A stretch of DNA of 39,928 bases from Pedosphaera sp. (lineage in GTDB: Bacteria > Verrucomicrobiota > Verrucomicrobiia > Limisphaerales > SIBH01): the NCBI GenBank assembly GCA_031414955.1, contig JANOQV010000237.1, positions 1 to 39,928 of the forward strand. Direction: 5' to 3'. Shown here one piece after another: positions 27,001-30,000 of the stretch (position 1 is the stretch's first letter; each line of letters begins with the position of its first letter). A program made the position numbers.

Positions 27001-30000
27001 CGTCACCTTCACGGTCTGTCCGCGGCCCCGCGGTCCGGCCCCGGCGATTTCCCGGTAGCTCCGCGCCGTCTCGTTCTCCGAGGTGTCCACCGCGTACACC
27101 TCGTTTGTGTCGTCGAGGGAATCCAGAATGTAAATGCCGCCCACCACAATCCAGGAAGGCATCTCGGCCAGATGCAGAACCGTCGAACCCTTGGCCGCAT
27201 CCTGGCTCAGGTTTACGGAATTGGTCAGCGCCTCCTCCCGGAACTGCTCCCCGCGCATGTAAATGTAGCCGTTGGTCAGGACCATTCGAGTCTGAGCCGG
27301 TGAGAAGCCGCGCATGATCTTGCCGCTTCCAATGTAGTTATAGTCGATGTCTCCGCCGACGATGAAAGTGCCGGGGCAGAGCATCACCACCTGGTTGCTC
27401 GGGCAGCGGCCCATCGCCTGACGAATCATGTCCCCATCGTCGCCGCCCGTCGGATAGAGGTTGGTGTAAATCGTCGTCACCGTGGGAATGCCGCCGGCCA
27501 CGCCCACGTTGCCCTGCCACGACACCCGTCGGCTGTCCGGAATAATCTGCGCCGCAAACGAGGTCAGGGCGCACAGAATAAGAGTGAGGATCAACTTCAT
27601 AGGCTTTGCTTCAGGTGGAAGATAATTCCGTGCTCTTCATCCGCAACACCTTGTTGTGGCCGACCACCACGGAGTAAGCGGGCACGCTCTCGGTCACCAC
27701 GGCGTTCGCGCCAATGATGGACCATTCACCGATGGTGATGCGGCCCAGAATTTTGGCGCCCGGCCCCACATACACGCCTTCCTTCAAAATGGGATCGCCG
27801 TCATCCTTCATCACTCCGGCGTAGGGACTTTTGCACCCGAGAGTCACTTGTTGCAGGAGCACAACATCATTGGCCAGTTGCGCCTGTTCCCCCGTCACGA
27901 TGCCAAGCGGGTGCGGGATGAACAACCGCTTCGGGATCACGCAGGCGATCTGACATCCCAACAGGAGACCGATCAACTTGCCGGTCCGGCGCCACCCGCG
28001 CCGTAAACAACTCAGGTACAAGGCGGCGAGCTTGCCGTTCTTGATGCACGGGTTCTTGGGATATGACTTCCCATGATCTGATCCCTCTTCACGCATAACC
28101 ACCGCCGATGACTGCTGGAATCTGAAAGCCGGCCCCGGCCAAAGTGACCGGCCCGGCTGATGTGATGAATGGAGCCGGCGAGAGGGTTTGAACGCTCCAC
28201 CTTCCGATTACAGATCGGACGCTCTACTTTTGAGCTACACCGGCATTAAGGAAAACGGGCGGCGATGCTTTAGTTCACATCCAACGAACCCGTCAACGTC
28301 AGACTTCATCGGCAGCCCGCGATAAACCATTAAGCTGATTTCGTTTCCGCCTGCTTGTTCTGCTCCACAGCCTCAGACGGTTCGGCCCCGGTTTTTTGAA
28401 CCGCCCCGGAGGCGAGCTTCGCCCGGATCTTGACCAAGAAGGCGGCCAGGCCCGGCGGCAGCAACTGCGTGAGGCTGCGATGCAACTTCAGCGTCAACGC
28501 GAGCCGGCCCTTGACTGTCAGCGGCACAAAGTAGCGCGGGAAGTTCATCTGCTCGAAGCCGTTGCGGCGCTTGAACTCGGCCAGGGGGGTGTTCGGATTG
28601 CTGCCGTAGCTGTACTTCCCGTAAACGAGGTGGGTGATGCCCTTCTGCGAGCAAACCTCCACGGCCTTGGCCAGCAACGCGTTCATGGGACGCTTGTCCT
28701 GGTGGCAATTCATCGAGAGGATTTGAACAATCTCCGCCACCTTGTCCACGTAGATGAGCTTGATGAAGCCAATGAGTTTTCCCTCGAAGAACGCGCCGAT
28801 GAAGTCACTGCGCTCCAGGTAGGTCGCGTTTTCCATCCGCACTGTTTCGAGATCCTTGCCGTAGTGCCAGAACTTCCGGCCCTGGCGGACAGGCGTCTCG
28901 TCGTAAATCGATTTGATGCCCTCGACGAATGCGGTGTTGAACTCCGCCACTTCCAACACCACGCCCCGCTTCGAGGCCCGGCGCGCATTCTTGCGGGACT
29001 CCTGCGGCAGCTTCTTCTCCCACCAGTCCGTGTAATCCACCGTGGAAACGACCGCCGCGTTGTCCCATTCAAAGTAGAGGTCGTGCCTGGGCTTCGTGTG
29101 CGGCACCTTCTGCGCGAAGCTGAGCAGGTCCGCGCCCAATGATCCGCCACGCACGCCTTGCACGAAAGCTTTGGGGTCGCGCACCGGTTCGCCTTCCACC
29201 AGTTCGTCGTCCTTGATCACGGCCAGCTTCAGCCACCGGCCCTTGACGATGACGGTGCGGCCTTCGACTTCGGCAGACACCGTCTTAATGGTTTTGCCCC
29301 GGATGCGGATCTCGGTTTGCTCGGATTTCATCAAATTACAAAGCCGCGTACGGCGCGAGTCGGAGCCCGCTCATTGTCTGCTCGAACGTGTGGCTCAGCA
29401 GCCAGTTTTTTTCTGTCTCGTGGATGGGATGCGTCATCATCTCCACGTTGGCCGAGCGCGCACTCTCCACCACGCGATTGAGGCGATTGGCCTTCAGGCA
29501 TTCGCCGAGCGAGAAAAAATAATCCGTCAGGCGGTAACGCCGGGCCAGCCGCCGATCCATCCACCCCCGATACGTGCGGTTCAAGGCGCTCTTCTCGCCG
29601 GGCCAGAAGGAAAAGTTCCGACGCACTTTCGCGCCGTTGGGAATCACGTCACCGAAGAGAATATTCGCGCACAGGTGCCGATGCTGATGCCCATCGACGT
29701 GCGTCGGCTCATGACCGAAGAGCCGCACGTACTCGTCCCACTGCGACCGAAAGACGGTCAAAAAGTCCTCCTTCAATTCCGGCCGATAGAGCAGCACGGC
29801 GTACTTGGTCTTGTTCAAGTAGGCACAGAGGCGCTGATGCGCCTCCTCCGCCGCTCCGCCGGGACCGCGTCCGTCGTAGCGCTGGTTGAGATTCAAGTGC
29901 AGGCCGGCATCAACGCCGTGTTCCTTGGCCAATTCCGCCGCGCGTTCTGAATCCGCCATGAAGACCATCGCGCTCACCGAGGTAATCCTGCCGGCGCGAA

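Follow-up and report, generated by a model that had tools for sequence, protein, structure and literature searches.

In its predicted structure, the 333-aa protein encoded at 28330..29331 of the window (the whole 39,928-nucleotide stretch of Pedosphaera sp. DNA analysed here) has the tandem GNAT fold of FemX, Sbb17 and MprF, and its gene is followed 85 nt past the stop codon, on the same strand, by an aberrant tRNA-Thr(UGU)-like gene. The transferase and the tRNA appear to form a two-part cassette inside a Wzx/Wzy surface-polysaccharide cluster, where the cis-encoded, non-ribosomal tRNA probably feeds the N-aminoacylation of an amino sugar in a pathway like Wbp/Vim, coupled to a cysteine-less AsnB. 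A preliminary description had proposed an aminoacyl-tRNA-dependent transferase with a tRNA of its own. This proposal is supported by the fold, the adjacency and the anatomy of the tRNA, and four new tests agree with it: blind co-occurrence, anticodon drift with the synthetase identity kept, Ala, Ser and Val bodies with decayed anticodon arms, and protein-tRNA covariation. The features of the cassette are:

28330..29331, minus strand: putative aminoacyl-tRNA transferase of Fem/MprF fold (tandem GNAT), 333 aa, from the ORF, predicted structure, Foldseek and VIA matches and homologue search
28966..29010, minus strand: basic helix, residues 108-122, presumed to bind the tRNA acceptor stem (helix H110-121 in the model; role by analogy to FemX as described in PMC12945691)
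28990-28992, minus strand: K114 codon, the residue that tracks tRNA type (covariation across loci)
28570..28575, minus strand: F253-K254, presumed equivalent of FemX Phe304-Lys305 from conservation rather than residue-level superposition
28170..28244, minus strand: surplus tRNA-Thr(UGU) with encoded CCA (Rfam RF00005; ARAGORN at -ps95)
28213, minus strand: C33 of the tRNA (tRNA anatomy)
28210-28212, minus strand: anticodon (tRNA anatomy)
28194, minus strand: bulged C in the T stem (tRNA anatomy)
28127..28158, minus strand: GC-rich hairpin just 3' of the tRNA, a possible terminator or processing signal (z -3.35, 0/200 shuffles)

Re-derivation of the coordinates returned the ORF and the spacing first reported, and the claims made for the protein came out the same: the only family match is a weak one to a GNAT domain (Pfam Acetyltransf_1, E 9e-4; NCBIfam none at E<=0.01), and 5100 homologues at E<=1e-3 are counted among 8000 scored proteins. 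With a new structure model (pLDDT 88.3), the top Foldseek matches are again all aminoacyl-tRNA-dependent transferases, namely Sba18 (E 3e-12), Sbb17 (E 8e-12), MprF, A-PGS and FemX. VIA Z-scores are 18.4 for FemX, 17.4 for Sbb17 and 16.2 for FemA, compared to 14.9 for the best tandem acetyltransferase, and the match to 6snr (Z 18.4, 260 residues, rmsd 4.1) argues for the tandem GNAT fold of FemABX-type transferases. The modelled protein lacks a membrane domain. Helix 110-121 is rich in R/K and contains a conserved R113, as judged from the model and the homologue alignment rather than from a superposed tRNA complex, and F253-K254 is at least 90% conserved in 81 distant homologues; the Phe-Lys catalytic pair of FemX is F304/K305 (PMC9723616, PMC12945691).

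Profile searches found no significant sequence link to FemX or TIGR03019. The FemAB (PF02388) and TIGR03019 (VimA-related) profiles give no match to the 333-aa query, neither over the curated cut-off nor below it, while among 64 family members PF02388 matches 23 at E<=1 (best 1.1e-4) and TIGR03019 matches one (E 0.049). PDB profile searches with the family returned only single-domain GNATs and no solved Fem enzyme, the best sequence matches being PaiA-type acetyltransferases; the same search from one Fem-like neighbour protein gave no match, and hhalign to two neighbouring Fem-like proteins gave a weak probability (<2%), with the basic helix alone as the aligned stretch. Acyl-CoA-dependent GNATs are marked by an R/Q-x-x-G-x-G/A pyrophosphate loop, and in the family profile aligned to PaiA-type proteins this acetyl-CoA glycine loop is replaced. 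Fusions to GT2 or GT4 domains occur in three homologues.

The tRNA of the window scores 52 bits against RF00005 and receives no default ARAGORN call, both as previously stated; at -ps95 it is the sole ARAGORN call in the window, labelled a possible pseudogene. Its acceptor stem has 7 bp with C3-G70, U73 and CCA in the gene, the D loop has 7 nt without GG and the variable loop has 4 nt, and the marks of an ordinary elongator tRNA-Thr (U33, D-loop GG and a flush 5-bp T stem) are absent. Canonical tRNA-Thr genes for UGU, CGU and GGU are all present in the genome, and the tRNA is therefore surplus. An identical sequence is found in contigs of runs X1 and X2, which belong to one study. The terminator scan did not call the GC-rich hairpin, and the promoter scan found nothing.

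Across the family, the T-stem bulge is the signature of these tRNAs. It is present in 78 of the 81 parsed Thr/Gly-type genes, which have a 7/5 acceptor/T branch with a pyrimidine bulge between 52 and 53, and in the family alignment the T stem pairs at 98.7% with the bulge and 61.7% without. Overall 99.2% of stem cells pair and 12 pairs are altered on both sides in a compensatory manner; a 4-nt variable loop is found in 78/81, a 7-nt anticodon loop with all four stems is kept in 78/81, and U-CCA is encoded in 70/81. The D-loop GG (G18G19) is missing in 65/81. Of the two weak EF-Tu pairs that mark the staphylococcal non-proteogenic tRNA-Gly, A51-U63 occurs in 65/81 and A49-U65 in 0/81. The T-loop UUC is kept in 72/81 and UGC is found in 2/81, so the staphylococcal UGC/UGU mark does not characterize this family. 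Positions 32, 33, 34, 37 and 38 of the anticodon arm drift, while the synthetase-read positions 35-36 are fixed: among the 78 loops of seven nt, 17 have a base other than U at position 33 and eight have a pyrimidine at 37, and the wobble base is U, C or A, with positions 35-36 being GU (63) or CC (15) and nothing else. As a control, all 44 ordinary tRNAs of the window's genome have U33 and a purine at 37. C33 was rejected as a family signature (13/78 only), as was model score alone as a classifier, with a canonical Terriglobia tRNA-Thr reaching 81 bits and one family member 77.

The preliminary description had confined the amino acids to Thr and Gly. Both types were found, but the range is wider. 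Distant homologues have five Ala bodies (G3.U70), four Ser bodies and one Val body beside the gene, as assigned from the identity elements of ThrRS, AlaRS, SerRS and ValRS. These bodies have 6-, 8- or 9-nt anticodon loops or distorted arms, and all four of the Ser type have a long arm and one additional base 3' of the T loop.

The adjacency of gene and tRNA was reported from two sets of loci. For the first 27 loci the counts stand, with an adjacent tRNA in 12 of 13 at >=44.7% identity and 0 of 14 below, but three of those 14 (L016, L019 and L020) have a tRNA-Gly of this kind elsewhere in the cluster, 6.6-10 kb upstream, which had been overlooked. Within the 13 GTDB loci, one tRNA lies on the opposite strand (L006), one has a 6-nt loop (L003) and one locus is the miss (L013). 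The second figure, a tRNA at 68 of 80 loci, was not matched exactly because the 80 metagenome loci were a different draw; adjacency is nonetheless common, with the gene directly followed by a tRNA in 58/80 (49 Thr, one of them cut by a contig end; five Gly; two with a Gly anticodon on a Thr-type stem; one with a six-nt loop; one Ser body). The remaining 22 comprise one locus with a tRNA 9 kb upstream, 14 without and seven with <300 nt of downstream sequence. From the tRNA density of this genome, the chance of a same-strand tRNA within 700 nt downstream is ~0.003 per locus. In a cultured carrier, Horticoccus sp. 23ND18S-11 (L008), the distance from stop codon to tRNA is 17 nt.

A blind scan of 151 genomes of one order found the protein in 20 and the family tRNA in 11; all 11 tRNAs lie on the protein's contig, within ~8 kb, and the two other matches are canonical Gly. 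Similarly, 151 Terriglobia genomes contain three bulged tRNAs, all in protein-carrying genomes, and six other matches that are canonical Thr. In one genome (G997), the bulged tRNA-Thr and the family gene are ~12 kb apart, and the tRNA stands tail to tail with the gene of a PF13480 protein. The tRNA is optional, being dispensable in many lineages. It was absent from the examined DNA for 50 of 150 tree rows, where 'none' is a lower bound because the Ser bodies of L201 and L203 escaped Rfam and the sequence of most later loci spans 1.5 kb per side. One of these rows (L207) is a tandem paralogue whose neighbouring copy has the tRNA. In all ten tRNA-less GTDB genomes tested, the best matches to the Thr/Gly model are canonical tRNAs only, and Rfam, the family model and a motif scan found no hidden allo-tRNAs in the given tRNA-less Acidobacterial loci. 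A decayed Gly tRNA is the sole tRNA of L166.

The anticodon, pair 3:70 and residue 114 of the transferase switch together. Residue 114 is K in 71/71 Thr rows with a residue at this position, R in 9/9 Gly rows and N in 5/5 Ala rows, and the rule, set on earlier loci, held in 12 new Thr and two new Gly loci. Neighbour proteins split Thr from Gly loci at 0.77 at most, compared to 1.0 for the transferase. R114 also occurs in 11/50 tRNA-less rows. Inside Thr clades, two loci (L037 and L085) combine a Gly anticodon with a stem of Thr type, and L085 goes against the rule in pairing the Gly anticodon with K114. Independent Thr/Gly pairs number two starred (five on the best tree), with a sign test that is not significant, and the tree test is compatible with the Gly type having arisen once (AU p 0.19).

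The large loci are polysaccharide clusters, and the window contains the following genes around the cassette:

11539..13113, minus strand: Wzx flippase (Pfam, NCBIfam)
19760..21151, minus strand: Wzy/O-antigen-ligase-like membrane protein (34/40 large loci)
24039..25874, minus strand: AsnB-like ATP-dependent amide synthetase without the N-terminal glutaminase cysteine
29336..30073, minus strand: YdjC-family carbohydrate deacetylase directly upstream of the transferase, which could free an amine (PF04794, 104 bits, over cut-off; 5/40 large loci)
30082..30981, minus strand: GT2 glycosyltransferase, core module (35/40 large loci)
30987..32201, minus strand: uncharacterised protein, probable alpha/alpha toroid, with weak GH88/GH76/C5-epimerase look-alikes (37/40 large loci)
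32219..33532, minus strand: GT4 glycosyltransferase (family match)
33463..35124, minus strand: VimE-like deacetylase, weak match (NF053580, E 2.5e-14, 52.7 bits against a cut-off of 440)
35749..39844, minus strand: Wbp-type diamino-uronate genes, namely DegT/WbpE aminotransferase, WbpB-like dehydrogenase fused to a hexapeptide acetyltransferase, and UDP-GlcNAc 2-epimerase (WbpI-like) (Pfam, NCBIfam; Wbp names by analogy to PMC7468200)

Of all gene partners of the transferase, the cysteine-less AsnB is the tightest (38/40 large loci). The WbpB/D/E/I-like and VimE-like genes of the window form a set as in the pathway described in PMC7468200. A VimE-like gene occurs in 9/40 and DegT in 12/40 large loci, and therefore the Wbp/Vim sugar could serve as acceptor at every locus only if the missing genes lie outside the 20 kb examined. 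An exosortase is present in the window's genome.

Combined, these observations suggest a sequence of steps. Housekeeping ThrRS would charge the cis-encoded tRNA through G35, U36 and pairs 1-72, 2-71 and 3-70, while the T-stem bulge, the weak A51-U63, the absent D-loop GG and the degenerate anticodon loop may keep the product away from EF-Tu and the ribosome. By analogy of fold, the transferase would hold the acceptor stem with its basic helix and use F253/K254 to move the threonyl group onto a free amine, most likely on a diamino-uronate or another amino-sugar nucleotide or lipid-linked repeat unit. The VimE-like or YdjC deacetylase would unmask this amine, and the product would be an N-threonyl sugar resembling the seryl and glycyl linking sugars of the Wbp/Vim pathway. 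In the weakest step, the cysteine-less AsnB probably then amidates an adenylated carboxylate with the new alpha-amine or a related amine. A joint change of tRNA and helix may switch the amino acid among Thr, Gly, Ala, Ser and Val, and lineages without the tRNA presumably use housekeeping aminoacyl-tRNA.

The constancy of AsnB, with its invariant ATP loop and a fold like AsnB and beta-lactam synthetase, lends some weight to a different chemistry that we regard as unlikely, in which the private tRNA and the Fem-fold protein only present the amino acid, and AsnB, having adenylated the C6 carboxyl of a uronate, joins it to the alpha-amine of Thr (Gly, Ala or Ser); once freed from the tRNA, the product would be HexA6-Thr, a structure of the kind in the Methanococcus flagellin glycan. 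ManNAcA6Thr is a known sugar whose enzyme was not identified as of 2010 (PMC2952790). An ATP ligase has no need of a tRNA ester, however, the conserved F253/K254 suggest ordinary acyl transfer, and the Thr/Gly-specific residues are located in the Fem-fold protein and not in AsnB. Still less probable is a private tRNA serving a non-sugar acceptor, be it a membrane lipid as with MprF, a peptide or protein as with FemX, or a small amine that enters the glycan afterwards; MprF, A-PGS and FemX score about equal to Sbb17, and the exosortase would fit such an acceptor, but the polysaccharide setting, the GT fusions and the missing membrane domain point to a sugar.

That the tRNA is a decaying duplicate or integration scar moving with the cluster, beside an acyl-CoA GNAT or a user of housekeeping tRNA only, is very improbable. 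The pseudogene label, the many loci without a tRNA, the decay in L166 and the PaiA-type matches would be expected of it, but the compensated and almost fully paired stems, the retained U-CCA, the five different tRNA bodies adjoining the gene, the joint switch with residue 114 and the missing acetyl-CoA loop would not. The least credible reading seems to be a further decoding tRNA whose role is to raise the translation of the operon; it would account for the 7-nt loop and four stems, but not for the tolerance of C33, A33, A34, pyrimidine 37, the T-stem bulge and 6- to 9-nt loops in a family whose representative here sits in a genome with a full Thr set.

To our knowledge, staphylococcal cell-wall synthesis is almost the only setting in which dedicated non-ribosomal tRNAs have been described. 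The staphylococcal tRNA-Gly NP1-NP3, charged by the ordinary synthetase and used by FmhB, FemA and FemB, are likewise surplus, lack the D-loop GG, have A51-U63 and partner a Fem-fold transferase (PMC7826273, PMC4052509). Low affinity for EF-Tu-GTP is a further mark of that group. Here, in contrast, the tRNA gene abuts the transferase gene in a polysaccharide operon, the T stem is bulged with the T-loop UUC and G49 mostly kept, Thr, Gly, Ala, Ser and Val versions exist, and the acceptor is probably a sugar and not lipid II. The best structural match, Orf11/Sba18/Sbb17 of tRNA-dependent streptothrisamine aminoacylation (9wqx, 9wqy, PMC12945691), passes the amino acid of aminoacyl-tRNA to an amino sugar as an amide; it belongs to an antibiotic pathway, has 12-14% identity to the protein here, and the text of the review on it does not contain 'tRNA gene'. 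The VimA/VimE Wbp/Vim pathway of Porphyromonas and Tannerella, in which a FemAB-related transferase puts Ser or Gly on a diamino-uronate (PMC7468200), shares with the window the Wbp genes, a VimE-like deacetylase, an AsnB-type amide enzyme and a FemAB-related or Fem-fold transferase. PMC7468200 describes no dedicated tRNA ('tRNA' occurs 0 times), TIGR03019 is unmatched here, VimE-like genes occur in a minority of loci, and VimA is set beside the protein by description only. Allo-tRNA and selC* tRNA-Cys are also bacterial with an unusual acceptor/T branch, including a T-stem bulge at 51a in selC*, but they have an 8/4 or 9/3 branch and long variable arms and partly translate, as opposed to the Thr/Gly layout here (PMC5389517, PMC7609411).

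The claim of novelty holds for the cis-encoded cassette and the bulged T-stem, and not for Fem-type amino-sugar aminoacylation or non-proteinogenic tRNAs as such. In the literature searched, which covered few subscription papers and had outside its scope the supplements of PMC5389517 (irregular tRNA lists) and PMC7468200 (Fig. S7 loci), which could bear on novelty, no description was found of a polysaccharide cluster that pairs a Fem-like gene with a tRNA gene. How non-ribosomal transferases win aminoacyl-tRNA from EF-Tu is a stated open question (PMC4052509). The natural series described here, with five amino-acid identities, an extra base in the T arm and one protein position tracking the tRNA type, makes EF-Tu escape and acceptor-stem reading directly testable. 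It also names candidate enzymes for amino-acid-decorated bacterial polysaccharides, indicates that glycan-cluster tRNA genes dismissed as pseudogenes can be functional components, and offers tRNAs that could serve as ready-made translation-orthogonal carriers. Possibly, though we would put it at somewhat below even chances, there is a general class of cis-encoded carrier tRNAs that act as programmable amino-acid donors for glycan decoration: one per polysaccharide cluster, repeatedly recruited from Thr, Gly, Ala, Ser or Val genes and withdrawn from translation through one additional T-arm base. A few tRNA base changes, with or without a matching helix change, would switch the surface amino acid, and AsnB or exosortase would then use the amine to cross-link the glycan or anchor proteins.

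The module had been called widespread, and its range is broad across phyla, but the distribution is patchy and the protein occurs in a minority of genomes. It was found in 0/400 other genomes of the window's own phylum, and the plasmids and viral contigs searched contained no homologue. Bulge-pattern matches in the own-phylum scan (seven genomes versus four control matches) were taken as chance, with the matched letters forming no T stem. In groups centred on known carriers, the protein is present in 20/151, 12/141, 1/141, 5/35 and 23/201 genomes, and the loci with an adjacent tRNA span Verrucomicrobiota, Pseudomonadota, Thermodesulfobacteriota and Bacillota, according to record titles, in addition to the class Terriglobia.

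It is highly probable that a private, non-ribosomal tRNA serves the Fem-fold transferase of the polysaccharide cluster, and the underlying observation, a tRNA accompanying this transferase, is real. The two genes are:

28330-29331 (-): 333-aa ORF (ORF translation), putative aminoacyl-tRNA transferase
28170-28244 (-): tRNA-Thr(UGU)-like gene, 75 nt with an encoded CCA (Rfam RF00005, 52 bits), starting 85 nt past the transferase stop codon

The preliminary description credited the protein with more than 5000 homologues and only a weak GNAT match, and both statements hold: 5100 homologues were found among 8000 scored (1338 clusters at 50% identity, E <= 1e-3), the Pfam match to GNAT has an E-value of 9e-4, and NCBIfam returned nothing at E <= 0.01. 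Profile searches likewise gave no membership in PF02388 or TIGR03019. The structure model (pLDDT 88.3) reproduced the reported Foldseek matches to Sba18, Sbb17, MprF, A-PGS, and FemX, and VIA-align scored FemX (Z 18.4, rmsd 4.1, 260 aligned), Sbb17 (Z 17.4), and FemA (Z 16.2) above the top-ranked tandem acetyltransferase (14.9). The acetyl-CoA-binding glycine loop of PaiA is replaced in the family. According to excerpts of PMC12945691 and PMC9723616, FemX binds the acceptor stem through a positively charged helix and has Phe304/Lys305 at the active site; the basic helix at 110-121 of the model and F253-K254, conserved among homologues, would be the equivalent features. Three homologues, among four long ones scanned, carry a fused GT2 or GT4 domain.

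As reported, default ARAGORN misses the tRNA, which at a relaxed threshold is the sole call in the window. Its letters are identical in contigs of two runs from one study, one possibly the source of the window. Both the protein and this tRNA type are single-copy in the genome, and ordinary tRNA-Thr genes (UGU, CGU, and GGU) are already present. Elsewhere in the genome, an array at C221:370-2479 contains seven odd tRNA genes (Gln, Leu twice, Arg, Lys, Thr, and Gly), most with UGC T loops and most without the D-loop GG; the array resembles cryptic tRNA operons known from cyanobacteria as well as other bacteria. ThrRS matches are fragments on contigs C1, C83, and C210, none above the cut-off, and ARAGORN did not find ordinary Ile(GAU) and Ala(UGC) genes, both probably the result of assembly gaps.

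The family tRNAs share a distorted T arm. Across 30 aligned copies, 98.7% of T-stem cells are paired when a pyrimidine is bulged between positions 52 and 53, compared with 61.7% in the standard register, and two pairs of the bulged stem show changes on both sides. Among 81 distinct Thr/Gly-type genes, including one ordinary Gly gene of locus L003, the bulge occurs in 78, while the D-loop GG is absent from 65 and A51-U63 is present in 65; these last two traits, common to most family tRNAs, are given in excerpts of PMC4052509 as marks of the staphylococcal non-proteogenic tRNA-Gly. Of the 78 genes with a 7-nt anticodon loop, 39 have a purine at 32, 17 a base other than U at 33, and eight a pyrimidine at 37; U, C, and A occur at the wobble position, but never G. 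Ordinary tRNAs of the genome (54 ARAGORN calls minus 10 left out as odd or false) have U33 and a purine at 37 in 44 of 44. Positions 35-36 are only GU (63) or CC (15), and pair 3:70 tracks the anticodon, with C-G or U.G in 63/63 Thr genes and G-C in 12/14 family Gly genes. A drifting loop with fixed 35-36 and a matching 3:70 would be expected if the synthetase, and not the ribosome, reads the anticodon. The identity elements applied here are, for GlyRS, those in excerpts of PMC7826273 and, for ThrRS, general background. Two tRNAs inside Thr clades (L037:3847-3922 and L085:1192-1266) combine a Gly anticodon with an acceptor stem of the Thr type, and a third (L003:11272-11345) has a 6-nt loop containing CC; these are possible amino-acid switches in progress.

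The reported adjacency counts for 27 GTDB loci, a tRNA in 12 of 13 close loci and 0 of 14 others, stand, but three of the 14 have a tRNA-Gly of the same kind 6.6-10 kb upstream. Recurrence in most of 80 related loci also stands in a different draw of 80 metagenome loci, though at 58 loci with an adjoining tRNA (median gap 48 nt, 56 measured), with one further tRNA at 9 kb, 14 loci without one, and seven ending too soon downstream to judge. Because these loci had been picked by protein, whole genomes were searched in both directions. Among 151 genomes of one order, the protein occurs in 20 and the tRNA model matched at E <= 1e-16 in 13. In 11 of the 13, the match shares a contig with the protein and is no more than about 8 kb from its gene; the remaining two matches are ordinary tRNA-Gly, so that none of the 131 protein-less genomes (32 candidates scored per genome) showed a family tRNA. 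Among 151 Terriglobia genomes, three bulged matches all fall in protein-bearing genomes, and six further matches were rejected as ordinary tRNA-Thr. In 10 GTDB genomes with a tRNA-less locus, the best genome-wide matches were only ordinary tRNAs. These results make the tRNA specific to the transferase system, yet optional. The tally of the protein, 23 of 201 genomes, includes one unpublished genome (G962), on which none of the other findings depends.

One of the three bulged Terriglobia matches, a tRNA-Thr in genome G997 (L232:3320-3394), is some 12 kb away from the family gene and tail to tail with an adjoining PF13480 (Acetyltransf_6) gene (3422-4717) near ATP-grasp genes, so that this tRNA type may also serve other Fem-fold families. 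Individual loci show a tandem duplicate of the tRNA (L036:11044-11268), two tandem paralogous transferases sharing a single tRNA (L218:8811-10843), and an ordinary-looking tRNA-Asn(GUU) 128 nt past the gene, probably by chance (L091:2078-2152). In genome G863 the family gene is interrupted, its pieces (L185/L186) about 2.9 kb apart, with a group II intron domain match about 0.8 kb upstream, and a tRNA-less cluster contains two Acido-Lenti-1 RNAs (L104:3979-4024 and 7640-7686).

Protein and tRNA type also covary. Residue 114, in the presumed tRNA-binding helix, is K in 71/71 Thr rows with a residue there (one gap), R in 9/9 Gly rows, and N in 5/5 Ala rows, and residue 238 is G/S/D in 72/72 Thr rows and C/R in 9/9 Gly rows. 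The rule, derived from 59 Thr and 7 Gly loci, was borne out in 12 further Thr and two further Gly loci, and L166, whose protein has the Gly-type helix, retains a decayed tRNA-Gly(UCC) remnant roughly 65-130 nt past its stop codon. Neighbouring proteins of the same loci separate the Thr and Gly groups at <=0.77, versus 1.0 for the family. Against this, R114 occurs in 11 of 50 tRNA-less rows and L085 combines a Gly anticodon with K114. Only two independent Thr/Gly pairs lie on starred branches (five on the best tree), and an AU test on the Thr and Gly rows alone, with the helix columns and columns 234-240 removed, did not reject a single origin of the Gly type (p 0.19). The trees exclude L026 and L027 along with partial matches, duplicates, and truncated loci.

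tRNAs for threonine and glycine, the two amino acids originally proposed, are both found, but the range of tRNA types is wider. Distant homologues adjoin five Ala-type tRNAs with G3.U70 (L139, L141, L144, L145, and L169), four long-armed Ser-type tRNAs (L105, L143, L201, and L203), and one Val-type tRNA (L135), in the same gene context as the Thr/Gly loci. Their anticodon arms are decayed, with loops of 6, 8, or 9 nt or bulged stems. Since AlaRS and SerRS do not read the anticodon, these arms can drift freely, but only in an RNA that takes no part in decoding. In 6 of the 10, one additional base on the 3' side of the T loop is an alternative route to the same T-arm distortion.

The transferase gene belongs to an extended Wzx/Wzy polysaccharide cluster on the minus strand. 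Its upstream neighbours encode a UDP-GlcNAc 2-epimerase, a dehydrogenase-hexapeptide acetyltransferase fusion, a DegT aminotransferase, a VimE-like protein (a weak match to the VimE deacetylase model, 52.7 bits against a cut-off of 440), a GT4, a GH88-like uncharacterised protein, a GT2, and a YdjC deacetylase, and those on the downstream side an acetyltransferase, a beta-helix protein, and an AsnB-like protein. This gene set matches that of the Porphyromonas/Tannerella diamino-uronate (Wbp/Vim) pathway as described in excerpts of PMC7468200, in which VimE removes an acetyl group and VimA then sets Ser or Gly on the diamino-uronate. Across the 40 loci in the GTDB and metagenome sets that span at least 17 kb, the core partners are AsnB-like (38/40), GH88-like (37/40), GT2 (35/40), and Wzy-like (34/40) proteins, and a second, ordinary AsnB (21/40), DegT (12/40), and VimE-like proteins (9/40) are rarer. 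The partner AsnB has no N-terminal cysteine (second residue Pro in 63/76, Ala in 3, Ser in 1, Asn in 1, 8 unparsed), retains its ATP loop, and resembles TsnB9, AsnB, and beta-lactam synthetase in fold, which suggests an ATP-dependent amide ligase using an outside amine.

In the most likely mechanism, ThrRS would charge the tRNA, the T-arm bulge would hold the charged tRNA away from EF-Tu, and the Fem-fold protein would transfer threonine to a sugar amine unmasked by a deacetylase or made by the aminotransferase, after which the cysteine-less AsnB would probably act on the new amine. Such a transfer would parallel VimA's own proposed role and, judging from excerpts of PMC12945691, the action of Orf11 on streptothrisamine. 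The main rival is that AsnB forms a uronic-acid amide with the amine of the amino acid, for which the partial text of PMC2952790 provides a precedent in ManNAcA6Thr. Taken as a whole, the account with an amino-sugar acceptor appears reasonably likely. The proposed novelty, both of a tRNA-dependent glycan-aminoacylation module and of a dedicated tRNA class, narrows to their combination: each half has a precedent, in the staphylococcal non-proteogenic tRNA-Gly and in Fem-like aminoacylation of amino sugars. A T-stem bulge is also known from the non-canonical tRNA selC*, but selC* has an 8/4 branch (excerpts of PMC5389517 and PMC7609411). A literature search that took in part of PMC13086638, and PMC5389517 and PMC7468200 without their supplements, turned up no publication describing such a transferase-tRNA cassette within a polysaccharide cluster.

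The GH88/C5-epimerase-like protein at 30987-32201 (-) is often misnamed delta-aminolevulinic acid dehydratase. A 2675-aa open frame at 2-8026 (-), running past the contig end and carrying MBG and cadherin-like domains, is a large surface protein beside the polysaccharide cluster. Finally, locus L043 holds, besides its bulged Thr tRNA, an odd tRNA with an Asp-like body (6233-6309, labelled Asn(GUU) by ARAGORN) immediately before the cysteine-less AsnB.
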